Under the pieces are notes generated by a model. The model was not told the DNA's origin. It made no database searches and saw only the letters and a program-made list of their open reading frames with translations. DNA of 64,000 nt, taken from NCBI RefSeq assembly GCF_023055435.1, contig NW_025964334.1, positions 49,972,001 through 50,036,000 of the forward strand, in the 5' to 3' direction. Position numbers and translations under genes: made by a program. This stretch comes from Haliotis rufescens (lineage: Eukaryota). Shown here piece by piece: positions 3,503 to 62,639 of this stretch. Within the stretch, counting starts at the first letter, position 1. Each line of letters opens with the position of its first letter.

Positions 3503-3910
3503 GACCCCTGAAGATCCGGGGTAGAAAAGGTCTTCAGCAACCCATGCTTGCCGTAAAAGGCGACTATGCTTGTCGTAACAGGCGACTAACGGGAAAGAGC
3601 GGTCAGGCGGTTCCTGACTTGGTTGATGTATGTCATCGTATCCTTGTTTGTTTATTTGTTGTTTAACGCCGCACTCAGCAATATTCCAGCTATGTGACGG
3701 CGGTCTGTAAATAAACGAGTCTGGACCAGACAGTCCAGTGATTGACACCATGAGCATCGATCGACAAAATTGGGATATATGACATGCATCAACCAAGTCA
3801 GCGAGCCTGACCACCCGATCCCGTTAGTCGCCTTTTACGACAAGCATAGTCGCCTTTTACGGCAAGCATGGGTTGCTGAAGACTTATTCTACCCAGGATC
3901 TTCACGGGTC
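3503..3910. mobile_element. Two family-B SINE-like copies in opposite orientation (3503-3642 +, 5' half; 3644-3910 -, full length)
   Basis: Head gacccc/gtgaagatccggggtagaa is present at both outer ends; (aaac)n tail at ~3644-3665. Confidence 0.9.
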
Positions 3911-4631: not shown

Positions 4632-4900
4632 GTTGGTTGGTTGGTTGGTTTGTTGTTTAACGCCGCATTCAGCAATATTCCAGCTATATGACGGCGGTCT
4701 GTAAATAATCGAGTCTGAACCAGTGATTATTATCATGAGCATCGATCCACGCAATTGGGATCGATGACATGCATCAACCAAGTCAGCGAGCCTGACCACC
4801 CGATCCCGTTGGTCGCCTTTTACGACAAGCATAGTCAATCACCTTTTACGGCAAGCATGGGTTGCTGAAGATCTATTCTACCCTGGAATCTTCACGGGTC
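4632..4900 (-). mobile_element. Family-B SINE-like element (non-tRNA head)
   Basis: Full head to (aacc)n tail; matches the other copies. Confidence 0.9.
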
Positions 4901-8500: not shown

Positions 8501-11500
8501 TCACTCCTGACTGGCAGATATAATTTCAATCAAACCTCAACTTTCAGGTAAGTCTTGTATAATTTATTACTTAACGCCATAGGGGCGGTCGGGTAGCCTA
8601 GTGGTTAAAGCGTTCGCTCGTCACGCCGAAGACCCGGGTTCGATTCCCGACATGGGTACAATGTGTGAAGCCCATTTGTGGTGTCCCCCGCCGTGATATT
8701 GCTGGAATATTGCTAAAAGCGGCGTTAAACCATACTCACTCACTCACTTAACGCCATATCAGCAATCTTGGAGCTAATCACAGCGATACCAAATGTAAAG
8801 CGTTCTGTTGCTCTGTATCTATGGAAATTATCCACTTACAGGTAAGTCTTGTTTAATTTATTACTTAACGCCGTATCAGCAATCTTGGAGCTAATCACAG
8901 CGATACCAAATGTAAAGCGTTCTGTTGCTCTGTATCTATGGAAATTATCCATATGTATTGTCTGTATTCTCTGTAATATATACTCATAGTATGAACGTGT
9001 AATGATGCAAATATTCTATTGGTAGCATTAATGTAGTCATATACAGCCTCGACCAAAATCGACCTGAATGAAGGAAACATATTCCACCATTTAGACACCA
9101 GCCGCTCTCCCAACCCCCCTCCTTCCCCTTAACCCTTGATGTACCTTTCCTATACACCTACCCTTGTGATAGTGACTGTTTTTGCCACCCATGAGCCACT
9201 CGTATGGAAGTTTGTCCTTCCGCATTCTCTCCAGGTGACACTTGTCGACTACCGCACGTAGAAGGTCTTCATTTACCCGAATGCAGAGAAACTCAGCTAG
9301 CTTGCGCAACTCGTCCACTGGATTCTGAAAATTCCACAAATGCCAGTGATAAAAACAGTTTAACTGAATATTATCAAAATACAATAAAATCATGACTCAA
9401 CAGTTTGTTTACCACATGGTGTCAGATCCCTCACTGGTCCCGGGAGCGCCGCCATGCTTTTTTTCCTCCTGATCAGATGTGACTCTCGTGGGACGGAACC
9501 ACAGCAAACGCTTCAGACAGCCAAAACATTCAATGTTAGGAAATCTCACTTTTGTGATATATGGCACACTGTTCCAACAAGAAATGGATGTGTGATTTGT
9601 TTGGAGAGAACATCAACCATATTAAGATTTTTATTCAGAAATACCATAAGATTAATAGTATTTTACGAGTACATTATCCATAAACTAAGTTTCCGATCCT
9701 CCGGAACTAGTGCTTAAAATTGTGATATCTTACTTTTTTCATGTCTTCGTAATACCAGAAATAGACATCCAGGTTGGGGTGTTTGGGCAGTTCACGCTCC
9801 CAGTCTCTCACATAGTCAAACCAACTTCCCCAGTCCACTGCAAACATAACATGAGGTCAACTTCAGTTATAACAGATATTTCAAACGGGGCAATTAATAC
9901 ATATTTTTCAAACATGTCAGTAGGTTTATATTTGTAGATTCTCATATCGACGTTGTTTGACTAGTACTCATTCTCGAATATCTACCGAAACAGATCACTT
10001 GAACGTAAAAGGCAAGATATTGGTGCAAATTGGTTGGATTGATCACTGAAAATCATTGATGACATGTGTTCGCGAAAAAAGGTGAGCTGTGCTTTTCCAC
10101 TGGTAGAAAATTCATTAACACATTCCAAGTTGCATTAGTGTTCTGATCACAAGAAGGATAAAAACGTTTTTGCTCAGACAATTTATATTTTATTTGGCGC
10201 CTGTTTCTTGCGATCGTGGGATCCTTAAGGGAGTCATGTGGAAAAGGTTTTCAAGGTATGCTGTTCATACGGGTTCGTGATAGAATCGCATCTAAATGGC
10301 CAATTCCCTTTCACTGATTTACCCACCTGAACTAGGCGTAATCGAGTCCGGCGACAGTTTCATATTTCATATCTATGCATGAAGATTCAGAGTGACATTA
10401 TTGTCTCCATACGACTGCATGATAAGAGAGATGACTTTTCACAACTTATGAGGTACAAACGAGTTTGCTCTTTCCACCAGGATTTCAAAGAGTGTCATAC
10501 GACTCTTGCACAGGAGTTGTTTGATCAGGAGTTCAACATTCAAGACCTTGGTTGGCTGGTTGGTTGGCTGGTTTGTTGTTTAACACCGCACTCAGCAATA
10601 TTCCAGCTATATGACGGCGGTCTGTATATAATCAAGTCTGGACCAGACAATTCAGTGAATGACATCATGAGCATCGATCCACGCAATTGGGATCGATGAC
10701 TTGCATTAACCAAGTCAGCGAGCCTGACCACCCAATCCCGTTAGTCGGCTTTTACGACAAGCAGAGTCACCTTTTACGGCAAGCATGGGTTGCTGAAGAC
10801 CTATTCTACCCCGGAATCTTCACGGGTCCCATTCAAGATCTGTATAAGTATCTAAGAATGTTTGTGATAGACATGTCGAGGACATATCCAAAGTTGACCA
10901 GTGACCAAAGTGATGTCCAATGCCATGCCCTATTTTGCCTTGTACCATTTGTTCCCGTTTTCTTTTCAAGCGATCAATTGACTTGCCTTTGCATGTATTT
11001 GTGACGGGTGTTACTGGTGGGTCAGGGTATGCTCACTGATAGACACCTGCGATTTTCTTATGTTCATGGAAATGGTTTTGTCAATTTTATTTCATTGTTT
11101 GCTTGATAGACGAAGAAGACATGAACATGAATAAATAATTTTGTTCACTTACATTCGCCATAAATACACAGAGGAAACCAGTCTTTCCACGCCCCCTTGT
11201 ACTCATAGTGTGGAAGCAGGGTCTGCATTCTATGCCATGAAACAATGGCATCTCGAGGATCTCTTAGTAAAAACACTACTTTAATTTTCTCAGTTTTCAG
11301 GTCTTCGGGCATTTGGTGGAAGAGTAAGTGGGTGTTTAAAACTCGCGGAGAAGGTGTGTTATCCAGTGTGCTGTGAGGTACAAATTCAATCATGTCCTCT
11401 TCTTTTTTCTTTCGTATGGTTTCAGTGTTATTGTTGATAAGCATGCAGATCATTTCATATGTCCAGTGTGTGCCTGATGAAAAGAAAAGTCGGAATGTTA

Positions 11501-13449: not shown

Positions 13450-14191
13450 TTCTCACTATTAAAAGAATTAAAAGTATTAAGTATAAAGAGACATTACTGG
13501 AATATACAAGCGTATGGGTTGTCTGGAAGTTGTTTGGTACAGCTGTGCCAGTTCAGCGTGGTACACGTTGATAACATTTAACAAAACAACAGTTCAAGAC
13601 TGTCATTACACTTCCATGCAATATGCTGACTGAATATTGACTATGAACCTCAATGCCAGAAAACAGAATAGCAAGAGATTCCATTGGGCTAAAAGGCAAA
13701 ACACGGTGAACATTATATGAATGGATCACTGAAAATCAGCGATGACACCATATGTCCGCCAACAGGGTAAATATGTCCTGCCCTGTACCTGCCACTCACG
13801 GCCACTGATTAATATCATGAGCATCGATCCAAGCACTTGGGATCTATGACATGCATTAACAAAGTCAGCGAGCCTGACCACCCGATCCCGTTAGTCGCCT
13901 TTTACGACAAGCATAGTCACCTTTTACGGCAAGCATGGGTTGCTGAAGACCTATTCTACCCCGGAATCTTCACGGGGCGCAACTATGACCCATAGGGTCC
14001 ATAAACATGTATTGAAATGCAAAAGTACCTGATCTCATCCAGCCTAGAAGAATAATGTCATCTTCTCTCAGGGCCAGTTTCGGAACCTCTCGAAGCACCT
14101 CCTCCGAATATGCCGGAGGTATTCGCACATCTCCAACTTGTCGAAGTAACAAACTTACCCCCGCTCTGTCCTTTACTTTAATTATTGACAT
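5595..14191 (-). CDS. Cytosolic sulfotransferase SULT-A, 292 aa, 5 coding exons
   Basis: Exons 14191-14029, 11473-11153, 9837-9734, 9324-9162, 5722-5595. All junctions GT-AG; 879 nt in frame. Motifs GWMRSGTHW, PRVLNTHL, RDPRDAIVS, WGSWFDY, YEDMKK, YHKGSVGGWKEVFTVKQYEEF. Confidence 0.93.
5817..8551 (+). mobile_element. Degenerate, internally deleted DIRS1-type tyrosine-recombinase retrotransposon in SULT-A intron 4
   Basis: Imperfect ITRs around actgcgcatgcg (5817-5895 and 8462-8551). Internal complementary region ~8294-8375. Relic peptides KPEN*DGLNVPELNTILWDN (gag-like), PTQTWF, NSWKPSTRKQY and GEHPVIVRFLKDVF..R...PR...WNV (DIRS recombinase N-terminus). Confidence 0.8.
7302..7586 (+). mobile_element. 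tRNA-derived SINE (family C) inserted in the DIRS relic
   Basis: A/B boxes, (cact)n tail, TSD gttgacagg at 7293-7301 and 7589-7597. Confidence 0.9.
8582..8747 (+). mobile_element. Family-A tRNA SINE, full length
   Basis: 13-bp TSD acttaacgccata. The empty site is visible in the adjacent duplicate at ~8839-8951. Confidence 0.93.
10548..10829 (-). mobile_element. Family-B SINE-like element
   Basis: Full length; TSD cattcaaga at 10537-10545 and 10830-10838. Confidence 0.92.
11940..12144. mobile_element. Palindromic MITE/fold-back element
   Basis: Terminal ttgtgaaacgctgggaattgcat pairs with atgcaattcccagcgtttcacaa, plus an inner ~45-bp inverted arm. No clear TSD. Confidence 0.7.
13017..13803. 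repeat. ~790-bp segment duplicated in inverted orientation at 50717-51440
   Basis: High identity throughout, including a family-C SINE fragment and a poly-C/poly-G run. Confidence 0.93.
13804..13977 (-). mobile_element. Family-B SINE-like element, 3'-truncated
   Basis: Head at 13977; tail replaced by the ectopic segment. Confidence 0.85.
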
Positions 14192-14707
14192 GCTCAACAG
14201 CCTGGCGTCTGGAGATGTAAAAAACATGATTAATAGTTGTCTTGGTTTTATACAACATATTAAATGCACTGTAGCTTTGTGATTTGGTTGGTTCTCTTTG
14301 TTGATTTCTAGCGTGTTTTCGGCACGAAATGTATTGCCACACATCCTTTGAATATTGTAATAACCGCAAACTTGCATTTTGTAACCTATAATTGTAGGTA
14401 CTATTCTATGATTATTAGCTTCCGCGGTGATGCGGCCGTCAAACCAGCTGTTTCAATCAGAGGGGGTTTATTGAGATTTTATAGCCTAATTCCTAATTCA
14501 TGGTAGAATGCGCTATTTCTATCCGCCACTTAGGGGCATGCTCAAAAGCATTAAACCATTATAACCCCGATCAATGAATCAGTGTGCCCTCGATTTAATT
14601 CTCAGCTCCCAAGGATTATACAACCAAGCTGCCTTTGATGTTAACAATCACATTACAATCTCTTCTAACAGGGTACTCATTCACTGCTGGGTGAACAGAG
14701 GCATATG

Positions 14708-14968
14708 CCGTGAAGATTCCGGGGAAGAATAGGTCTTCAACAACCCATGCTTGCCGTAAAAGGTAACTACGCTTGTCGTAAAAGGCGACTAATGGGATCG
14801 GGTGGTCAGGCACGCTGACTTGGTTGATGCATGTCATCGATCCAAAGTGCGTGGATAGATGCTCATGATATTAATCACTGGATTGTCTGGTCCAGACTCG
14901 AGTATTTACAGACCGCCGTCATATAGCTGGAATATTGCGTCGTTAAACAACACACCAACCAACCAACC
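14708..14968 (+). mobile_element. Family-B SINE-like element
   Basis: ccgtgaagattccgggg...ttaaacaacacaccaaccaacc. Confidence 0.9.
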
Positions 14969-15983: not shown

Positions 15984-17474
15984 TGTGTGTGTGCGTTTGC
16001 GTGTGTGTGCGTGCGCGATAGTCAGGACTAATGCCGGTTTTATATTGCTAACCCGCTGAGATACCATGCCGCAGTTTAACATAGATACCCCACTCAGACA
16101 CAGTATACAGACTCCGAGCCGGCCAGTCCTCGTTTTATCCCCTTAATGCTGAGCACAAGTGGGTCGGACCACCAATCTTCCGCTCTCCGGAAAGACAAGT
16201 ATAATACACTAACCACAAGTGGTTATCTGTTTCTAGGTTTCTCAGCCTCTAACCATGCTTGTAGGTTTTACCCAAATGGTAAGTGTCCAAGGACTGCATC
16301 AATCCGGGGTTTCCTCCTACTTAAAGCTGACACGCCGTAATATAACTGAAATATTGTTAAAAGCAGCGTTAACTTACACCTGATCGACTATGTAGCATAC
16401 GTTTAGTACTTACAGGTTGCATGAATGTGAAATTGCAAGTGTCACTGGAGGGCGCTGATGACCTAAATACATCTGTATTAGCCAAGTTGTCAAATATGGC
16501 ATTATCTAAGCGTGACACGTGCACTGGTTGTGAAAATCGTCAGTGGTGTTGAACAAGTTCAAGCTATATAAGGGTGAGAAAATCTTTACCGTAGTCATTT
16601 GAAATCACAAGTCTACAAACTCTTGATATTTCTCGTCTTAGTGGCATAAACCCATCATTGTTCTTATACAAAAGCCTGGATGGGATCTTTCAGATACAGC
16701 TTATCTTAACTAGCATTCTTGGTTGATGCATGTCATCGATCCCAATTGCGTGGATGGATGCTCATGATATCAATCACTGGATTGTCTGGTCCAGACTCGA
16801 TTATTTGCAGACCGCCGTCACATAGCTAGAATATTGCTGAGTGCGACGTTAAACAACAATAATCCGAATATTCATGTTTATACTGTTATCACTTTCTTGT
16901 GACTACCTCCGTGGTCGGCGTTAAACAACAAACCAAACCAAACCTACTGTTAGATCTCATACAATTATTGTGTATTCTAAATTTGGCGGTCGGGATCGAA
17001 AACCGGACCATTCACTCTCCGGGCAGAGGCTCTATCACTGGACCCCGTAGGCGATCTGGCATTCAAAGAACATTTGTCACTTAGTTCGACTACAATTGCT
17101 AACTATCGCCAGCGACTGAAGGAATGGTGTAAATCCTGCTTGAGTGCGGTAAGTCCACAAGACCCTAGTATGGTGGGCCATCGTTGTTGCCGGGGATCTA
17201 CAGCCCGTTTTTATAATGTCTTGTCATGTAAAGCAATATCTTCTTATGGTACATACTATAACATCTGATAGAAATCTGCGATATACCTAGTTATTTTACT
17301 GTCCTTTGTTGACATTTTTTGTATGTAGCCTAAATGAATTTGTATGTAAAACCTTTCACAGTCACGATATGGCTGAAATACTCCCGATGTGGCTTTTGAT
17401 TGTAATTCTCTCACTCAATTTGCATGTGTTTCTGTCTGGCACCACTCACCTGGTGTCATCACTCTTAGATAGTG

Positions 17475-17736
17475 GACCCGTGAAGACGCCGGGGTAGAAT
17501 AGGTCTTCAGCAACCCATACTTGCCGTAAAAGACGACTATGCTTGTCGTAAAAGGCGACTAACGGGATCGGGTGGTCAGACTCGCTGACTTGATTGATGC
17601 AAGCCATCGATCCCAATTGCGTGGATCGATGCTCATGATATCAATCACTGGATTGTCTGGTCGAAACTCGATTATTTTTCAGACCGCCGTTATATAGCTG
17701 CAATATTTCTGAGTGCGGCGTTAAACGACAAACAAA
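17475..17736 (+). mobile_element. Family-B SINE-like element
   Basis: Full length, flanked by gatagtg on both sides. A partial copy lies at ~16717-16860. Confidence 0.9.
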
Positions 17737-18169
17737 CTTTGATAGTGATTCATAAACACATGCTGACGATATAGTCGGAATCGTAAATCGACTCGAGATT
17801 TCTTATGAATATTCACATTCAAATGTTCATTATATGAAAGATCTTAGGCCCAAATACAAGAACTGCATACAGTAGAGTACAGTGTCATTTTACAAATGTA
17901 TTCACATGCTTAATGTGAAGTACGTTTCTGGTTTATTTGAAATAAAACATAACAGATTTTAAATCTTGATACTTTGTTGGACTGATGGCCGAGTTACATA
18001 TTTATTTTATTATTTCGAGTATCTTTTAGGGATGGTCACAGAAAGGTGCAATGATACATATCTTCGATCTTCTTCAAATATTGGATTTGTCGATCCTATT
18101 TTTGTCGGTGTAACAAATGTGTACATGTCAGTACTGTACGGGATCGCCCTGGATTCCATCTACACAAAG

Positions 18170-21100
18170 TCAGGAACTTTCATAACGCTGTTGGAAACTA
18201 GAACCTTCCATTCTCTTCCGGTAGATATCGTCAAACTTTGCCTTCTGTACGGGCGTGAACATATTCTTCCAGTCTCCCACAGCACCTGCATGGAGAAAGC
18301 ATATCATGAGACAGTGGGTGTGATCGCTGTTCTGAGTTGGTTTGGGTTTTCATGGTCCGATCACCTGTCGCTGTAGTCTTGTCATGCAATTAGCGAGGGA
18401 GTGAGTTAGTTGTGTACGCTACTTCAGATAAAACGCGAGTGAGTGAGTTGGGTTTAACGCCGCTTTTAACAGTATTCCAGTTATATCACGGCGTGTCAGC
18501 TTAAGGTAGGAGGAAAGCCCGAAGTGATGCAGGTCTCAGACGTTTACCACTTCGGTGAAACCCACGAGCACGGGTATGGTGCTGACGAACCTAGAAGCAT
18601 AATCGGGGCGAACCGGGATTCGAACCCACAATCATAGGTTTCCGGCGTCCCCAAGGGATGCAACTCTGCACAGCGAATCGCGGCGCCTTAGACGACTGGG
18701 CCATCCCTGCCTCCGCGTTGGCTTGAGTTTTCCTGGTCCGACCACCTGTCGTTGTCGTCTTGTCATGCAATGAGCAAGTGAGTGAGTTAGTTGTGTACAC
18801 TACTTTAGATAGAATACGAAATGTCAGCTTTATTTGAGACGATTGTCCAAAAGGATTTAGAAAATAATAATTACCACGTTTGTGAATTCTTCAAGCGTGG
18901 GTATGGTGCTGAATAGTGTCTGCTATAGTATATTTATTGTGCTTAGTATATTAAATGTGTTATTCCAATTACATCATATGCAAGTTAGGATTTTATCATA
19001 CATTGATTACGACAACTTTGGTTTGAATTGGGAGGAGTCGGGCGCTGTGTATGCAGCCACAAATGATCATGTTGTTTGTTTGTTGTTTAACGCCGCATTC
19101 AGCAATATTTCAGCTGTACGACGGCGGTCTGCAAATAACCGAATCTGGACCAGACAATCCAGTGATTGACATCACCAGCTTCGATCCACGCATTTGGGAT
19201 ACGATGACATGCAACAACAAAGTCAGCGAGCCTGACCACCCGATCCCGTTAGTCGCCTCTTACAACACAATGCAGCAATTTACAGTAATACAAACCTTTT
19301 CTATATTGGGCAAGATTTTCATTCCATTTGTCTGTTATCTTATCCTTTTCACTCTTCATTCTACTGAATGTAGACTTATGAACAACTTGATCAATAAAAT
19401 CTTTCGTAACGCGTTTATCCAGGAATGTTGCCAGTTTTCGTACTTCTTCATGTGGATCCTGAAACGACATCACATGTATTACTTTCATCATATATTATAC
19501 CACCAATAGTGAGTTGGCTTTAAAGCCGCTTTGAACAGTATTCCAGTTATATCACGTACTGTCAGCTTTATGAGAGTCCGAAGTAATGCAGGTGTCAGAC
19601 GTTTATCACTTTGGTGACACCCACGAGCACGGGTATGGTGCTGACAAACACAGAAACATAGATTCGAACCCAGAGTCATAGGTTACTGGTTTGCACAGGG
19701 GACGAACTCTTCACAGCAAAGTGCGGCACCTTTGACGACTGCACCACCCGTGATCCCCTAAACTAACTACAGAGTTATAATAATGAGGAAATGCGTCACC
19801 AACACTTATGCACCTACTCCATTGGGATTAAGGCTTAGAATATGTCTCCAGCAACCCAAGCTAGCATCATTTACACAATTGACCGTATTTAACCTAAATT
19901 TATTTCCAGTCATGAAAAGGACGCCCCCTATTCTTACTTCTTATATGATCAAACAATTATACAGTCACACCATGTGGCGACAGTGACAATACGTGCTTAC
20001 TACCACGATGCCAGACCGTTAATTATTATCTGACACAGATACGGGTTTTATTCGTGAGAAACAGAAACGCCTTTTTGAAAAAAGAAAGGTGCACGTTTTT
20101 GGGGAAAGGAATGTGTGCATTGTTTGGTTGGTTGGTTGGTTTGTTGAATGGTTAACGCCGCACTCCGCAATATTCCAGCTATATGGCGGCGGTCTGTAAA
20201 TAATCGAGTCTGGACCAGACAATCCAGTGATTAATATCATAAGCATCGATCCACGCATTTGGGATACGATGACATGCAACAACCAAGTCAGCGAGCCTGA
20301 CCACCCGATCCCGTTAGTCGCCTTTTACGACAAGCATAGTCCCCTTTTACGGCAAGCATGGGTTGCTGAAGACCTATGCTACCCCTGATCTTCACGGGTC
20401 GATGTGTGCATTGAGTGTCAACACATAATTAGTGAAATTGGCGTTTTGTAGCCAAAAAGTAGTCAGTGAAGTGTAATTTTGTTGATGCATGTCACCCAAA
20501 TGATTCAGGGTTTTTTATACGTCTACAAATTTGCTCCTGCAATCCAACCAATGGATCAGCGTATGAATTATTGTAAAAATACCTTTTTAAGATCTTCGTA
20601 AAATACAATGTGCAGAAAGCGTGGATCTATGGTTTCGCATTCTTTTTCATATGAGCGAATGTGATCAAACCACGTACTCCACATAACTGCAATGGAAAGC
20701 ATACGGTTAAAAGTATAATTTTTGAAGTGATTATATATACAGAGACAGATACGTACTGATACAGCTACTTCTCTCCAATGGAAGTACATTGTATGTCTTG
20801 TCGATCCTGATAAATAAGAATAATCTGATGAAATGTGTAAATTGACATACACCCATGAACATGCCTGGTGGTGGACTACTGCAGAGTATTATTTTTGTAA
20901 ATTGATAAAACATACTCACACTGATCAAATCTGCCAGAGAAAGAGTATTGCACTGATCTGTATTGCATTTATAGAAGGACAGGGCAGCTTGATGTGGAGC
21001 AAAGTCCGAACTAAAGCAGATTTCTATGTTTACCATTTTGGTGAAACATTCGACCACTGGCATGCTGCCGACAAACCTAGAAACATGATCATGATCTAGC

Positions 21101-24100
21101 CTGCCAAAGGGGCGGAAATCTGCACAGAGAGTTGCGGTGCCTTTGACGCATTGGCCTTCCGTGTCCCCAAGAGAAAGAAACTATAATAGTTAAAAGTAAA
21201 GTTTTGTCCAAGAGAAAGAAACTATAATAGTTAAAAGTAAAGTTTTGTCCAACTACAACGTCATTAAGAAATTGTTTCCAAACTACGCACATTTCTCACT
21301 CATGAACAGATGCAGCCAATCATCCCAAGAACCCTTATAGGTATTGTTTGGAAAGGCTCTGTAGTAATAGAACCAGGACACTGCCACGTCCTTGGGGTCA
21401 CGAATGATGTACACCGTCTTCACGTTCCGATGTTTCAGGTCTTTGGGCATGAGCTGACGCTGGACGTGGCTTGTGAGTATTCTCGGGGAGGGAAGACATT
21501 GGAGGTCTGCGTCGGGTACGACTTCCAGAACACCGCTCTCCAGGGTGAAGGGCACGTTGTCGGCACTGCCAGACACCAGCATGTTGACGATCTCAAACAG
21601 CCAGTGGTGACCTGAAGGAGAACGGCATTATGTCTCCGGTTTTTTTTGTTTTAATGTTACTTAAAACATCTTGTTTAATAAAACACTTGCCATGTCAAGC
21701 TTTTCATAAGGGTTATCTGTTTGGTAGCATTTTTAGAAGTTGATAAGTAACAGTAAAGACAAAAATAACTTCTTTATTCTATCATTTTGCGACCTTACGG
21801 TATACTCTCATATGGGGGTATGTCAACGCCGCAATATTCAAGCTATATGACGGCGGTCTGTAAATAAGCGAGTCTGGAACAGACAATCCAGTGATTGATA
21901 TCATGAGCATCGATCCACGCAATTGGGATCGATGACAGGCATCAACCAAGTCAGCGAGCCTGACCACCCGATGCCGTTAGTCGCCTTTTACGACAAGCAT
22001 AGTCACCTTTTACGGCAAGCATGGGTTGCTGAAGATCGATTCTACCGTCTCTCTATTCTCTATTCTATTCCCATATGGGGAATGAGGACACGCATTGCAT
22101 ACAAAAGTATTCTAAAACATTTGCTGTTAATCTCTAGCTATATAGTGAGTTGGTTTAACTCCGCTTTTAACAGTATTCCAGTCATATCACGGCGTGTCAG
22201 CTTAATGTGGGAGGAAAGCCCGAAGTGATGGAGGTCTCAGACGTTTACCACTTCGGTGAAACCCACGAGCACGGGTATGGTGCTGACAAACCTGGAAACA
22301 TAATCGGGGCGAACCGGAATTCGAACCCACAATCATAGGTTTCTGGCGTGCATAAGGGATGCAACTCTGCACAGCGAATCGCGGTGCCTTAGACGACTGG
22401 GCCACCCGTGAGCCCTCTAGCTATATAAATGTCAGAATTTTATTTTTTTAAACATTCACTCAATACGTTTCTTAACATACCAATAATAATAATAATACAT
22501 TTTATGACAGTTATCCTAACATAAGGTAGAGATACAACTTTTGGGACAGCGTGTGAATCTCATTTCTTGTGAGTGAGTGAATGTGGTTTTACGCCGCTTT
22601 TAGCACTATTCCAGCAATATCGCGGCGGGGAACACTAGAAATGGGCTTTACACATTGTTCCTATGTGGGGAATCAAACCCGTGTCTTCGACGTAACAAGC
22701 GAATGCTTTAACCACTTGGCTACTCGCTCTTTATTTGACAAATCGTTTTCACAAAGTTCGCATGATCTATTTATTGAATCTGGTAGATATACAGGTATCC
22801 AAAGTGAAGAAGGAATCTGTCAGCTGCGCGACTTAAATAGGAATAAAGACGAGTACCGATCTGTATTTATTACCCATAGGGGCTAAAATATGCTGCGTAA
22901 TATCTTTTTGATTTTTGCACAGTATGCAATTAGTGATTCTCGAAGCTAAAGCTCGGAACTTAAAACATTAATTTCACCCGTGACACTCGTCACTCGTATC
23001 TATTCTACCTTTTTCTATAATTATTACTGACACGTGAAGATTCCGGAGTAGATTAGGTCTTCAGGAACCCATGCTTGCCGTAAAAGGTGACTATGCTTGT
23101 CGTAAAAGGCGACTAACGGGATCGGGTGGTCAGGCTCACTGACTTGGTTGATGCATGTCATCGATCCCAATTGCGTGGATCGATGCTCACGATGTCAGTC
23201 ACTGGATTGTCTGGTCCAGACTCGATTATTTACAGACCGCCGTCATATAGCTGGAATATTGCTGAGTGCGGCGTTAAACAACCAACCAACCAACTGTAAT
23301 TATTACTAGTATCTCTTGGATATTGCATAGAAAATAGCTAATTTCGCAGTGATAAGACTGAACTCATACACGGATTTGTGTTATCATGTACTATAGGTCA
23401 ATGGCCTTCGCGGTACACAGGTAAAAGTTTAAATTGAGTGACTGGAATGCTAATTTTGTTAAAGAGTTTACGCAGGAACAACGCATCACAATGGTTAGGC
23501 TACACAATGGTGGAACTTGTCATGGAAATTGTAAAAAAAGAAGAGTTTGGAACCTATGTCCATCTTGTTGCCATGGAAACGTAAAAAATAAAAAATTCTA
23601 AAATTTCTAAACAGCAAATGGCAACAGTTCAGCATGTACCTGACAGACCTGCAAAGTTTGATGAAAATATATTGAACGGTTTATATATATACGAACCCTA
23701 CCCTCACAGAACCTAAGTCCATCTTGTTGCCATAGAAACGTAAAAAATAAAAAATTATACAATTTCTTAATAGCAAAAGGCACCAGTTCAGCATGTACCT
23801 GACAGACCTGCAAAGTTTGATGAAAAAATATTGAACGGTTTCTAAGCTGTGCTCCGGAAACGAACCCTACCCTCACCGAACCTAAGTCCATCTTATACAT
23901 GGAAACGTAAAAAATAAAAATTTATAAAATTTCTTAAAAGCAAAAGGCACCAGTTCAGCATGTACTTGACAGACCTGCACAGTTTGATGAAAAAATATTG
24001 AACGGTTTATGAGTTATGCTCCGGAAACGAAACGTGGCGGACGGACGGAGCCCGTTTCTATATCCCCCGACAACTTTGATGGGCGGGGAATAATAAAACT

Positions 24101-25995: not shown

Positions 25996-26589
25996 GCTTT
26001 TGACTTACTTGACTACAGCATCTGTGCTGTTTGATACCACCATTTATGAACTGATTTTATGAGTGAAAGAATAGTATTCACCCTTTAGAATCAATATGTC
26101 ATTGTATGTGATTGGTAGTTTAAATCATTTTTAAATCATGCGACATATATGTAGCAGATATTAACAAGCATAATGTTTTTTCCTGTTTTGTTTTTTCATA
26201 TTTCTGAACGCCACATAGCAATATTACACAGAGCCTGACCACAAACTCCATTTGGTCCCCCCTTACATGGGATTCTAACGACCAAATCTTGCCCGGAATC
26301 CTCAAACTTGGAATATGTATAATTCAAGCTGACAAGCTGTATTTGTAATGGTGTATTGGAAAAGTAGACATTATGCCTGGTATGTTATAATATGAATGGT
26401 GTCATTGTGTGAATCTTTGACATCTTTGATTACAGTAGGAACCAAATAGTCATTGTCACTTTTACGGTCAATTATGCTAAAGATGAAACAATATTGCTTC
26501 ATTGTGTCATGTTCTGGTTCTAGTACACATTTTGGTTACGCTTAATGTCATTTAAAGGGGATGGCCGCCTGAGGTTATTAGGTAACAGG

Positions 26590-27140
26590 GACCCTATGGG
26601 GATTCCGGGTTAGAATAGATGCCCAGTAACCAATGCTGGTTGTAAAAGGCGACCAAATGGATCGGGTGGTCAGGCTGGGTGACTTGGTTGCTTGCGTTAT
26701 TGAAACCCGTCCAGGGTGCACAGCCGGCCCAGTCGTCTAAGGCGCCGCGATTCGCTGTGGAGAGTTGCATCCCTTGGGCACGCCAGAAACCTATGATTGT
26801 TGGTTCGAATCCCGGTTCGCCCCGATTATGTTTCTAGGTTTGTCAGCACCATACCCGTGCTCGTGGGTTTAACCGAAATTGTAAATATCTGAGACCTGCA
26901 TCACTTCGGGCTTTCCTCCCATATTAAGCTAAAACACCCTGATATAACTGGAATAATGTTAAAAGCGGCGTTAAACCCAACTCACTCACACTCACTCATC
27001 CTCTGCGAGGATCATTGCTCACAATATCGATCACTGGATTGTCTGGTCCAAATTCGATCATTTACACGCCGCCGTCATTAGCTGGCATGATTATTGCTCA
27101 GTGAGGCGTTAACAACAACAGCAAACAAACAAAACAAAAC
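26590..27140 (+). mobile_element. Divergent family-B element interrupted by a family-C SINE (26714-26998), just downstream of the SULT-C stop
   Basis: B head 26590-26700; B body and tail resume at ~27000-27140. Confidence 0.85.
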
Positions 27141-50479: not shown

Positions 50480-50719
50480 GGGTTGGTTGGTTGGTTTGTT
50501 GTTTAACGCCGCACTCAGCAATATTCCAGCTATATGACGGCGGTCTGTAAATAATCGAATGAGCATCGATCCACGCAATTGGGATCGATGACATGCATCA
50601 AACCAAGCCAGCGAGCCTGACAACCCGATCCCGTTAGTTGCCTTTTACGACAAGCATAGTTACCTTTTACGGCAAGCATGGGTTGCTGAAGACCTATTCT
50701 ACCCCGGATCTTCACGGGC
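50480..50719 (-). mobile_element. Family-B SINE-like element with TSD
   Basis: gtgagtgg at 50471-50478 and 50721-50728. Further copies at 55890-56135, 60625-60828 and 61660-61955 (all -). Confidence 0.9.
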
Positions 50720-53700
50720 CGTGAGTGGCAGGTACAGGGCAGGACATATTTACCCTGTTGGCGGACATATGGTGTCATCGCTGATTTTCAGTGATCCATT
50801 CATATAATGTTCACCGTGTTTTGCCTTTTAGCCCAATGGAATCTCTTGCTATTCTGTTTTCAGGCATTGAGGTTCATAGTCAATATTCAGTCAGCATATT
50901 ACATGGAAGTGTAATGACAGTCTTGAACTGTTGTTTTGTTAAATGTTATCAACGTGTACCCCGCTGAACTGGCACAGCTGTACCAAACAACTTCCAGACA
51001 ATCCATATGCTTGTAAATTCCAGTAATGTCTCTTAATACTTTAATACTTTTAATTCTTTTAATAGTAAGAAGGGGGGGGGGGGGGGGGGGGGGGGGGGTC
51101 GTCTGAGACTGGCGTCGTGATATAACTGGAATAATGTTAAAAGCGGCGTTAAACCCAACTCACTCACACTAATAGTGAGAAGTGAATGCCCCACCCAAAT
51201 AATCTGGGACAGCCACCTGTAATGATTTTAAGCTCGCTTCTTAAATGAAAAACACTTAACGACTCTTTCAGTGTTGAGGTGTGATCTGACAGGAATAATA
51301 AAATAATTTTCCAGGAGCACATCTAGCTCATACCGCAGTTGTTACATGGCTGATGGTTGGTGCTACTGAACTACTTATTCTTCTTTGGTTTAATTTATTT
51401 TAGACTCATTGAGAACGCCATTGGGGTTTCTCTAAAACTTGGAGTGTGTAAAATGAAGTGAGTGTGATTTCATCTGCATATGTTTTAACCAGTCGTCTGT
51501 CACATTCTGTTGCTTAAACGTGTTTCATAATGTGCCTCAGACATGTATCATAATGTAATATATTTTAAAAACTTCAAATGTTTAGGAGAAATATATATCT
51601 ACTGTCGCAAAATTTACCAAGTCAATATTTTTGTATGATTAGAGTATTTGGCATTGACCATTCATCTCCATAAGCTATAGGGCTGAAGAGGTATCACGTA
51701 ATACTTGACATTGATATACTTCGTGTCTTGTTTAAGCTGTAAGCTGCCGCGGGTTTGGGGAGTGAGTGCTTAACACACTTACCCGGAAACCACACTGCCT
51801 TTGAATTGCGTCGTATGTGATACAGGCAACCAGCGAGGGAAGATGCCACGGAGGAATTTAGGTCAGGTTTGTAACTCCATCCTTCACTGCCTTCGCGCTG
51901 CTATTGTAACAGCTTGTTGAACAAGAATACATATCAGGCTTCGTTAAGGTACGACTTTGTGAAAAAAATAGAGCAATGAACATTTATACCGAACAGTCGA
52001 GTAGGTAATGCTTCTCGATTTGTATTATGTTCGAAAGATACATCCCAAAGCATTGTCTTTATAATAGTATTGATTAATATCCTATTACGAATTCACATAC
52101 CATGACCGACATGGATACACTGTGTGAAACCCAATCTTGGTGTTCAGTGTCTCCAAGGGTGAACTTATGAATGGCTTCGAATTAAAGAGCATAATCCTTT
52201 ATTGTGTTATGGTTGCGACATTGTCTTTTCTTTATAGCCCCTATTTGACAGCTATTCAAAGGATACAGATCACATTCCCTTACGAGCATCGCACCCATGT
52301 CTTTCTATGCTGAGTCAACTACTAAAGAAATGATTGGGCCTAGACTTTAAAACTGCGCCCCACTGTGTTGTGAAACGAATACGTTTTTCTTTCCTTACAT
52401 GTAGCAACATTTCTGCAGTTGTACACAGCAGACTTAATTCAAAATAAACATACAGTTTTTATTAGTTTCAACAATCTGGTTTCACTGGATTTTCTGTTTC
52501 ATCTATCACTTGATTGTCTGTCTTGTTCACATGCTGACGTCGCATGGCAGAAGTACTGCTGTGTTGCGTCAGGCAATAAATACCTACTCCTTTATGCAAA
52601 CTGTGTGAATGGCAGGTGCTACTAGTTGAGCAGGACATGCTTACCCTATTCGCGAACACCTGGTGTCTTTACAAATTTGAGTGGTCCATTCATATAATTT
52701 ACACTTCTATTTGCCCTTTCCGCCAAGTGGCAGAGAGGGGGCACGGGTGGCCCAGTCGTCTGTGGCGCCGCGATTCGCTGTGCAGAGTTGCGTCCATTAG
52801 GTACGCCAGAAACCTATCATTGTGGGTTTGTCAGCACCATACCCGTGCTCTTGGGTTTCACCAAAGTGGTAAACGTCTGAGACCTGCATCTATTCGGGCT
52901 TTCCTGCAACATTAAGCTGACACGCCGTGATATAACTGGAATACTGTTAAAAGCGGCGTTAAACCCCACTCACTCACTCTCTTTCGGCAGAAAATCTAGG
53001 CTTATTATTCTCTTACGTTTACAATTTATATTTGCATGAATTAGATGCCCTCTTAAATGACAGGACAAGATATATAGAGCAAATCGTTATGTGTATGTGA
53101 CAGTGAAACACATGCCCAAAACTCGAAGACCTTTCAATTAAACGTAACAGCTACCTCGCCGAGGACAGAACACGCTGTTGGGATGTGAGACGTTTATTCA
53201 GGTAGCAATGTTAGACGGACATCAGAAGAATATCAGATGCATGACCATGCAAACACGACCATATATAATAAAGATATGATCACGGAGAATTGAATATTTC
53301 AAATAAATGTAAGTCATATCACATATTATAATATTAACGTACAATCAGTGAGTGAGTATGGTTTTACGCTGCTTTTAGCACTATTCCAGCAATATCACGG
53401 CGGGGACACCAGAAATGGGCTTCATACATTGTACCCATGTCGGGTCTTCGGCACGACGAGCGAAAGCTTGAACCATTAGGCTACCCGACCACCTCACATA
53501 CAAACACAATTAACAACAAGAACGAATCACAATTAACAACAAGAAAGAATACACATCATACCATGATAACAGGTATTCCCAAAGGATTATCAGAATATAT
53601 TTGACAAGGCCAATTGGTGGATATGGTCCTAACTCAGATGTTGTGATGTCACATTAAACAACAAGAGAGAATAATTGATTAAGCACAATGGGGAAATCCT

Positions 53701-55245: not shown

Positions 55246-56683
55246 ATCATATCTGCTCAATACATTATGAACATTAATTATACTTTTATTCTTTTTATTA
55301 TCTGGTATATAGTGGTATATTGATTTATGACCCAGTAGTATTACTATTTGATAGTAATTAATTAACACGTGATTTTGCTGTTGCTGGAATCATACAATGG
55401 ACTCCATATAGCTCAGTTGAGCTGGTAGTTGTAGACTTGGGGCAATATCCAGCTGTACACGTGTCCACCATTGAAGCAAGATGGTCGTACAATAATCAAT
55501 AATCCTCATAAAATGGATGCATAGCCGCTGAGCATCACATCATAAAATGGCAGATAAACGGTGCAACCAAGTCAACATATCAGCCAATGAACAATATTGT
55601 CACGCACCGTTGTGCCAGTAGCTTTAGGCCCCGCCTCCAAATAGGTTTGTTTTGGAAGCTGACTATGGAGTGTTTGATTTCAATACTTTAACTTTGACGT
55701 TAAACTACTTTTCACAATTCACTTCATGTATCTTGGAAAATTTATATTCGCAACAAAATCACAACCAATATTTTCACTTAACTTGTGCTTGAACAGTAAT
55801 GCTAAAAGGCACCAAATCGATTGTAACACTATCAATAAAATTAGGGAAATCGTGACTTTCAAAATCAATTACAATTGTCTCGATTGAAGTTTGTTTTTTG
55901 TTGTCTAATGGCGCACCAAACAATATTCCAGCTATATGATAGCAGTCTGTAAATAATCTCATCTGGACCAGACTATCCAGTGATTGACATCATCAGCATC
56001 AATCCACGGAATTGGGATCCGATGACATGCATTAACCAAGTCAGTGAGCCTGACCATCCGATCTCGTTAGTTGCCTCTTACGGCAAACATAGTCGCCTTT
56101 TACGGCAAGCATTGGTTGCTGAAAACCTATTCTACAACTGTGCAGACGGAACATCACAGAGCCAAATTATTCGTCAGAATGTGTGCTCATATGCTAATGA
56201 TAATGTTTAGAATATTTAATTTATGTTTCTTTTTCAACTCGGTAATAGCGCTACCTAATACTATCTTATCTCCTCATGTAATCAGTGCAATACATATTCA
56301 TTTAAGGGTTTCTGAACAAAACAGAATAAAACATGCGATCGAAATGTAGGACTGGTTGTATTGTCAAAACATCAAAGCTGGTTGAACCTTTCACTGAAAT
56401 TATTGTCAAAGGGTTTCTCTGCCCTCGATGTTTGATGTGTTTTATCAATACAAAATGGAAAACATCCAAGTGTGACTCCTCATGGTTGATTGACAAAAAC
56501 CATCGATACCTGCAGGGGTTTTGTGCATAGAAACAGGGAGGCCAGACAGTGTTATGGTTATGCCAACATAACACCACAAATCAGCATACGGGGATTTTAA
56601 GCCACACATCATACTGTGTTCTCTGGTATCTAACACTGAATAGGTTTGCGAAGACAGCATCTTCCCAATACAACCTATCCAGC

Positions 56684-61600: not shown

Positions 61601-62639
61601 CAGGCAAAATATGTTTCATTCAGCGAGTCTAGATCTGAAGAGGGGAGCCGAAACATTTTTTGTTTGTTTGTTGTTTAACGCCTCACTCAGCAATATTCCA
61701 GCTATATGAATATTCCAGCGGTCTGTAAATAATCGAGTCTGGACCAGACCATCCAGTGATTGACTTCGTGAGCATTGATCCACACAATTAGGAAATGATG
61801 ACACCCATCAACCAAGTGAGCGAGTCTGACCACCCGATCCCGCTAGCGAGTCTGACCACCCGATCCCCCTAATCGCCTCTTACGACAAACATAGTCGCCT
61901 TTTACGGCAGGCATGGGTTGCTGAAGACCTATTCTAACCCGTATCTTCACTGGTCTCGGTTTACTTGGTCTGTAACATGGTATATTTTTCTTGATCGAAG
62001 GTGTATACTCTAAGGCAAATGTACGGAGACGGAGTGGTAGGGTCTGAAGTGGTGGGCCTTGTGATCTTGTGTCCTCATACTGCGCTACGTGAACTTATGA
62101 AACGTTTTTGCTAAGGGCCTATAAATATTTTTTCTCTTTGTCTGAAACATCTCCATAAGACAATACAAGACACATATAGTATTTCAAACGGTAATCAAGC
62201 TTACAAAAAGGAAAATGGTTCAATATATGTGTCAAAAGCTGAATTTTCAAGTATAGACGTTTTAAAGGAAAATAATATTTTGTTTCAAATAGCTCACCTT
62301 TTTTCGTCAGGGGAAAACCTCCAAATTTTGACTCTGCAGTTTGCTGTGCGCGCATTCCCATTCACGTGTTCTTTATTTAAGAAGATCCTAGATACGTACG
62401 TATGTGACACTTCAAAGGTAATTTACCCCTCCTGGTGTGAGGTAGTGTTTGCGAAACGTGAAACATTCAATATGCATACATCATCAGTTAACATGATCTT
62501 CCGTGTGGATTACATCTGTTACAATTTTGCACTATGAACAAGTAAACCAGAATATTAGAAATCTTTATGCAGCTAATTTGCATGCTCTGAGACCACGTGT
62601 TGTACAACCGTTAACAAGTCGACACATGGGCAGACGCCA

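Follow-up and report, generated by a model that had tools for sequence, protein, structure and literature searches.

The abalone LP-SINE opens with a conserved two-domain RNA fold that recurs in LINEs and viral contigs

The abalone LP-SINE among elements with structured 5' ends

LP-SINEs of abalone, periwinkle, oyster and scallop were published in 2016 (PMC4758252). Their first ~70 bp are common to the 5' ends of Nimb-17_LMi, I-3_DR and RTE-9_CPB; in the accessible parts of that paper, this head is presumed to be a promoter, experiments are called for, and the partner LINE is left unnamed. Structured RNAs at the 5' ends of other retroelements comprise HDV-like ribozymes of LINEs (R2, L1Tc Pr77, RTE, Baggins; PMC6765202) and twister variants that start the RTE-type element Perere-3 of Schistosoma (PMC8501958). 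The first exonuclease-resistant RNAs (xrRNAs) to be discovered came from viral 3' UTRs, and the accessible parts of a 2021 review describe them as characterised in viruses only (PMC8374639).

The element studied here lies in a 64,000-nt stretch of Haliotis rufescens DNA (the window). It is a tRNA-free SINE of ~262 nt (17475..17736, plus strand), delimited by BLAST and by flanking TSDs of 11 nt with one mismatch between the left (17464–17474) and right (17737–17747) sides. As far as the accessible parts of PMC4758252 go, it fits the mollusc LP-SINE class (Hdi_LP/Hmi_LP and the scallop MESC SINEs, ~255 nt), so the element itself is already described: the same head motif occurs in the scallop 'Nimb-17 homology' alignment of the supplement, TSDs are variable, the tail is a tandem repeat, and a tRNA head is absent. 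The abalone LP consensus of 255 agrees with ~262 here in a comparison by length alone. Where the covered parts of that paper presume a promoter and give no structure, the fold, the likely partner LINE and the viral copies are added here. Within the scope of our searches (Rfam and the open literature), neither the fold nor the viral copies nor a LINE carrying an HDV-like module plus head had been reported, and the core motif appears in no paper of the open literature searched; these three thus appear to be new.

The initial annotation had pointed to more than 15 copies with a common start, variable-length TSDs, a lack of Pol III boxes and a 22-nt tandem duplication, and all of these features are borne out. 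BLAST with the focal copy yields 32 matches in the window, of which 23 extend into the head or body and 9 are confined to the tail, and a covariance model places 19 heads at E ≤ 0.1 (16 of these at E ≤ 0.01). The start 11-mer occurs ten times with at most one mismatch, five times exactly, against 0.56 expected. TSDs of 11–19 nt could be called for 35 of 62 full-length copies. The best A box of the SINE copies has 2–3 mismatches and the best B box 3, compared with 0 and 0 in a tRNA SINE at 8587 that served as control; the A/B boxes of Pol III SINEs (tRNA/5S/7SL) are thus absent. The duplication is present in 12/12 measurable window copies and in 33/42 copies from sampled stretches. Its degenerate unit is the first one, with C for U at the second stem position in 39/39 copies. 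An Rfam scan of the window matches the tRNA head of another SINE and no focal-family copy. Extrapolation from 51 head and 63 body matches in 600 kb, sampled at round coordinates on large contigs and hence not strictly at random, gives 1.1–1.4 × 10^5 copies in the genome.

Full-length copies with called TSDs lie at 10571..10828 (minus), 20139..20400 (minus) and 23029..23290 (plus), all found by BLAST. BLAST together with the covariance model locates two further full-length copies at 3650..3910 and 4644..4900 and one with internal duplications at 61662..61955 (all minus), a near full-length copy at 14706..14959 (plus), a 3'-truncated copy with head at 3503..3643 (plus), a copy with head whose 3' part is missing at 13802..13978 (minus), 5'-truncated copies at 21833..22046 and 55887..56135 (both minus), and one with an internal deletion at 50490..50720 (minus). 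An older single-unit head variant at 26589..26690 (plus) was placed by the covariance model. The two oppositely oriented copies at 3503–3910 meet at 3643/3650 and would form long double-stranded RNA. A SINE at 8587–8745 with a tRNA head, whose A and B boxes are perfect, carries the same LINE tail, and several of the tail-only matches may be its own.

Two-domain fold of the SINE head

The first ~75 nt of the SINE constitute a conserved two-domain RNA fold, whose elements follow in the order a - b - a' - (optional hairpin) - AGAAU - b' - RGUA - c - UGCYU - hairpin d - UAA - c'. In the focal copy (all plus strand), a 6-nt leader of G-N and strand a, CCCG (17475..17480), for which pairing with a' is predicted from conserved complementarity, precedes the 5' strand of helix b (17481..17487). 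The G run a' of the predicted 5' H-type pseudoknot (17490..17494, by alignment) and the conserved AGAAU loop segment (17496..17501), defined by near-invariant columns outside the search pattern that fetched the loci, lie before the 3' strand of b (17503..17509). Helix c (17513..17517 with 17563..17567), placed like b by covariation and just 3 bp long in the young family, encloses the first, degenerate 22-nt core unit (17518..17539) and the intact unit of UGCYU, hairpin d (GUCG/CGAC) and UAA (17540..17562), as seen by alignment and unit comparison. Further downstream follow a 9-bp hairpin of the SINE body (17605..17631; folding and copy comparison), a ~45-nt tail (17684..17726) and an AAAC-type terminal repeat (17727..17736).

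The fold was aligned over 23 sequences from about 20 families (20 sequences from other organisms, 3 from this genome), with clusters of degenerate 5' domain left out. When partners are swapped between families, the b/b' duplex energy falls from −9.3 kcal/mol for cognate strands to −4.4 kcal/mol and that of c/c' from −4.1 to −2.1 kcal/mol (p 5e-5 each, n = 23), and removal of three close relatives leaves both results unchanged. Held-out sequences, degenerate ones included, give p 5e-5 for b/b' (n = 12) and p 0.034 (n = 13) and 0.0018 (n = 18) for c/c'; some of these rows are kin of the training families, and the swap tests ignore relatedness between families. RNAalifold recovers b, c and d unaided, and 84% of structure cells are paired, against 40–56% when the structure is slid. 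Two of four shuffle measures were passed, both sensitive to relatedness, and both pair-count measures failed. Complementarity of a with a' (CCC/GGG) is found in 79% of cells and reaches p 0.0017 in the training set with full flanks, the held-out set being not significant; we therefore treat the 5' H-type pseudoknot as predicted. The 23-nt core is invariant by construction of the search pattern, so hairpin d is without covariation support.

The initial annotation was right about the long stem and the GUCG/CGAC hairpin, and the covariation of b/b' and c/c' upholds the earlier view of the head as a structured RNA. Two other pairings that had been proposed fare differently: the outer helix CCCGU/ACGGG (a-c') and the pseudoknot between loop GGGU and ACCC (a'-c) can both be drawn on this family, yet neither shows family-specific complementarity. 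Swap-test p values for the two range over 0.37–0.94, and over 0.63–0.91 on the model alignment, with a lowest value of 0.10; for a'-c they are 0.63–0.93. Vienna draws the outer helix for one single-unit copy, and in the young SINE alone, where c/c' has just 3 bp, this helix together with the loop-ACCC pairing may form an alternative. The focal copy folds no better than its shuffles (z −0.91), and the same holds for duplicated young copies; single-unit heads beat shuffles in three of five cases (z −2.0 to −2.8; the other two −1.6 and −0.7). The downstream 9-bp hairpin, also noted initially, is perfect in about half of the copies (27 perfect against 26 with an extra T in the main classes), but it is specific to the subfamily and lies outside the conserved fold; it was not seen in four of five relatives checked. 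A twister-like inner pseudoknot (CYU with AGG) is paired in 97% and was rejected, being broken by G variants in the LINE family of this genome, in L193 and in L257.

As had been stated, the head does not match canonical hammerhead, twister or complete HDV motifs: it has no Rfam ribozyme match. Models of hammerhead, twister, twister-sister, pistol and hatchet give no gathering-level match in the window, nor does any of 10 loci covering diverse heads match an Rfam ribozyme model at E ≤ 10. Of the nested double pseudoknot that defines HDV (P1, P2, P3/L3, P1.1, J4/2 C), the SINE head lacks P1, P3/L3 and P1.1, and the would-be 3' segment of P1 pairs with c'. Unlike the twister of Perere-3, as far as PMC8501958 was accessible, the fold is contained entirely in the element and needs no flanking sequence for its covariation. 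Among viral xrRNAs, the flavivirus class 1/2 architecture of a three-way junction plus pseudoknot differs from the two side-by-side domains formed by the covarying helices, again with no Rfam match. The downstream 3' pairing of the apical loop in class 3 (ST9a type; described in the accessible part of PMC12397905) would correspond to a'-c, which is not family-specific. Coremin xrRNAs have at the stall site a 5' hairpin whose loop reads YGAD or YGNNAD, and the head has none; hairpin d resembles it in its GUC/GAC stem but carries the loop UAARAGG and lies ~50 nt inside.

Likely partner LINE, other carriers and 5' ends

Pattern search of this genome returned LINE copies with the head. One of these (L226; G000:C2:22557600-22567599, minus strand) is an intact LINE with a 14-nt TSD, a 453-aa first frame and a 1229-aa second frame encoding endonuclease, RT and RNase H, and because of this domain order we call it I/Nimb-type. 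Its tail aligns with the tails of the focal SINE and of the tRNA SINE at 8587, with 24 invariant columns in 6 rows. The SINE head derives from the 5' end of this I/Nimb-type LINE family of the same genome, with which its 3' tail is also shared; the element is thus bipartite and non-autonomous with a LINE-derived head and tail, as the initial annotation had suggested. LINEs of the L226 type are likely the partner that mobilises both SINE families, the head SINE and the tRNA SINE. An abundant, very young second RNase H LINE (L081-L100; 1260-aa frame, copies 98–99.8% alike) was considered as partner and rejected: it ends without a matching tail in a TAAG repeat, and its protein is 32% identical to that of L226.

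Directly before the L226 head, a descriptor search finds a 57-nt HDV-like ribozyme module with all parts canonical (P1 with G1.U, P2, a 3-bp P3, the loop UCCUCGU, GG and CUAA), to which the Rfam HDV models respond at E 0.01–0.03, below gathering. By descriptor and by G1 at the TSD edge, this upstream module belongs with the HDV-like ribozymes of LINE 5' ends and is separate from the head. Among LINE copies obtained with a query that includes the module, 25 of 25 begin at its G1 and are preceded by random bases, and the module is predicted to carry the self-cleaving role of the LINE. When the query began at the head instead, 30 of 40 matches were fetched, of which 29 have the full HDV-like module, one has part of it and none starts at the head. 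A set anchored in the UTR (n = 20) comprises 15 copies with the full module, one with part, one of the other subfamily with none, and three without a detectable head. The young intact family (L226, L230-L254, L292-L341) is also an observation in itself, its HDV-like module being very compact.

In a more diverged LINE subfamily the HDV module is absent; its copies begin with the C-run of the head, and their flanks vary. From this start it follows that the SINE descends from the head alone and that HDV-less elements have amplified with precise ends. The module was apparently gained or kept by one LINE subfamily only. Upstream of heads from other organisms, the descriptor found no HDV module, but it is strict and missed the degenerate copies L044, L197 and L202 of the present genome.

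Outside this genome, the 23-nt core pattern retrieved 44 metagenome loci and 2 viral ones, and looser forms added one viral locus and three loci in MAG contigs. The first 46 loci (50 matches) form 24 clusters. In three of these, endonuclease-like frames follow the head, which we take to be RTE-type from a motif; one of the three scores Exo_endo_phos at E 0.0018. Another head stands after AAT repeats and before a frame, without Pfam match, that presumably resembles R4/Dong. One head family is followed by a tRNA-like stretch, as judged by eye. The head is thus common to unrelated protein machineries: I/Nimb-type, RTE-type (assigned partly by the motif just mentioned), and the RTE and Nimb families given in the accessible parts of PMC4758252. 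The three MAG-contig heads (L255-L257), two of them like the animal family L107, are probably host DNA in bins.

The motif was found in three viral contigs only. In L102, a toti-like RdRp, identical to a protein of a named insect toti-like virus, has its stop 25 nt before the motif, which is 182 nt from the contig end. In L193/L291, 75 nt separate the motif from a preceding RdRP_3 frame (E 1.7e-21). Both RNA-virus heads have their own intact helices of different sequence. The third viral contig (L101), of 212,482 bases, carries the motif upstream of a long frame. A protein scan for viral relatives returned just the contig of the query itself, and of eight matches in a loose viral scan, five are without the helices and were taken as chance. 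The three contigs may be chimeric assemblies or captured host elements. In L101, a clear helix c is absent, and the head stands ~160 nt before the long frame, which looks kinase-like by eye and has no Pfam match. In L102 (933-958), a short separate pseudoknot-like pairing can be drawn by eye between RdRp stop and head.

A 5' edge 5–6 nt before helix b recurs in the focal SINE, the HDV-less LINE subfamily, the L107 family (7/7) and the scallop SINE (accessible supplement of PMC4758252). Of 62 full-length SINE copies, some of them chosen because they resemble the focal copy, 53 have G at position −2 before CCCG; position −1 is A in 39, G in 14, C in 6 and T in 3. Across families the first base is G or C and not conserved, with G first in 7/7 L107-family copies, and the HDV-less LINE subfamily has no G preference before its C-run. 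Three small-RNA runs gave 2, 16 and 1 reads, too few for the lack of an end pile-up to weigh much.

Candidate functions of the head

The head bears on how promoter-less SINEs and LINEs gain a precise 5' end. We put at roughly 45% the probability that it acts as a roadblock to 5'-3' exonucleases of the Xrn1/Xrn2 type and so sets 5' ends from host transcripts. SINE copies would be transcribed passively inside host RNAs, and decay from the 5' side would stall ~6 nt before helix b, leaving an RNA with a defined 5' end held by the predicted CCC/GGG pseudoknot. The LINE protein would then bind the SINE tail and retrotranspose the RNA. In viruses, the same block would yield a 3' subgenomic RNA. Covariation and the RNA-virus copies suggest an RNA-level role, and because none of the 30 HDV-bearing copies starts at the head, cutting or initiation at its edge is argued against; the self-cleavage and internal-promoter functions envisaged initially are both weakened by this count. 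A roadblock would fit the fixed leader length, the free first base and the viral 3' UTR position, an argument from position and exclusion; that the head accompanies unrelated protein machineries also speaks for it. With viral xrRNAs (flavivirus class 1/2, plant class 3 such as ST9a, coremin; accessible parts of PMC8374639, PMC12397905 and PMC10520033) the head shares a compact fold of 50–80 nt, the viral 3' UTR position and a 5' end fixed at the fold edge, but it occurs mainly in retroelements. Against the roadblock, its architecture matches none of the xrRNA classes compared, and ordinary frameshift pseudoknots do not stall Xrn1, according to the accessible part of PMC10321173. Moreover, the count of 0/30 also means that the HDV-bearing subfamily holds no decay intermediates, hence no positive support; the head of this subfamily, with its core variants, may be weakened. 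The G at −2 could be a reverse-transcribed cap, which would likewise count against the roadblock, as do the small number of viral contigs and their possibly chimeric nature.

It seems unlikely to us that the head is a binding site for a host factor (a translation initiation factor, the ribosome or an RNA-stabilising protein) in cap-independent translation or RNP assembly. It would then act as an enhancer on the 5' side of uncapped LINE RNA and on the 3' side in viruses, and would lure ribosomes for the SINE. This accords with its being kept intact immediately after the HDV-like module, which already sets the ends, with its longest conserved part being a sequence-conserved loop as expected of a binding site, and with the 3' translation enhancers of plant viruses. 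Alone, such binding leaves unexplained why HDV-less LINE copies and several SINE families start 5–6 nt before helix b. Rather improbable is a new class of self-cleaving ribozyme whose cut, at its own 5' edge, would release the element from host transcripts. The head does occupy the position of the HDV-like and twister ribozymes in other LINEs (accessible parts of PMC6765202 and PMC8501958), its 5' edges are precise, it is compact, its conserved core ends in CUAA like HDV J4/2, and known ribozymes are present in totivirus genomes (PMC13725137, in part). Yet none of the 30 young LINE copies starts at the head, where cleavage would remove the HDV module, an HDV fold cannot be built with strand c paired to c', Rfam has no ribozyme match for the head, and the first base is not conserved.

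We give still less credence to an internal DNA promoter ('LINE promoter') with a start ~6 nt before helix b and a copied cap as 5' G, the function favoured by the position of the head and its replacement of tRNA heads (PMC4758252, accessible parts), by the strongly conserved primary sequence, and by the frequent G at −2 with variable −1 and the uniform first G of the L107 family. A promoter leaves the compensatory changes in covarying helices and the presence in RNA-virus 3' UTRs unexplained, and is further weakened by the missing head-edge starts in the HDV-bearing subfamily and the missing G preference in the HDV-less one. Least probable is a role in retrotransposition itself, in which the structure would bind the LINE protein or prime the second strand on RNA or cDNA, the viral matches being captures or chimeras: the R2 protein binds a 5' pseudoknot (PMC6765202, in part) and the viral matches number only three, but the head is common to LINE clades with different proteins, and the two RNA-virus copies keep intact helices of their own sequence.

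The exonuclease roadblock, if real, would be the first outside viruses and the first xrRNA class in animal genomes, with about 10^5 copies in this one. It would answer the question on xrRNAs in eukaryotic genomes raised in the accessible parts of PMC8374639, would mean that host transcripts contain obstacles to decay in their many thousands, and would offer a compact 5'-protecting module for RNA-templated gene insertion. Slightly more tentative is our broader proposal that the head represents a new exonuclease-resistant RNA class passed between LINE clades, SINEs and RNA viruses, and thus a third route to a 5' end besides promoters and ribozymes. Even otherwise, the head is an unlisted RNA family common to retroelements and viruses, accompanied by an HDV-plus-head LINE as likely SINE partner, and a ~75-nt fold with natural compensatory variants makes its function testable.

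Heads or their parts also occur in tandem. The first domain of the SINE head alone forms arrays with 52-nt units in L081 (9357-9974) and ~50-nt units in L092 (7346-7748), and the whole head is contained in 74-nt tandem repeats in L142. Two diverged heads stand in tandem before an RTE-like frame in L110. In the same genome as the focal copy, an array of at least 65 kb (G000:C57:2176621-2242441) consists of ~640-nt units, each of which carries an older head variant.
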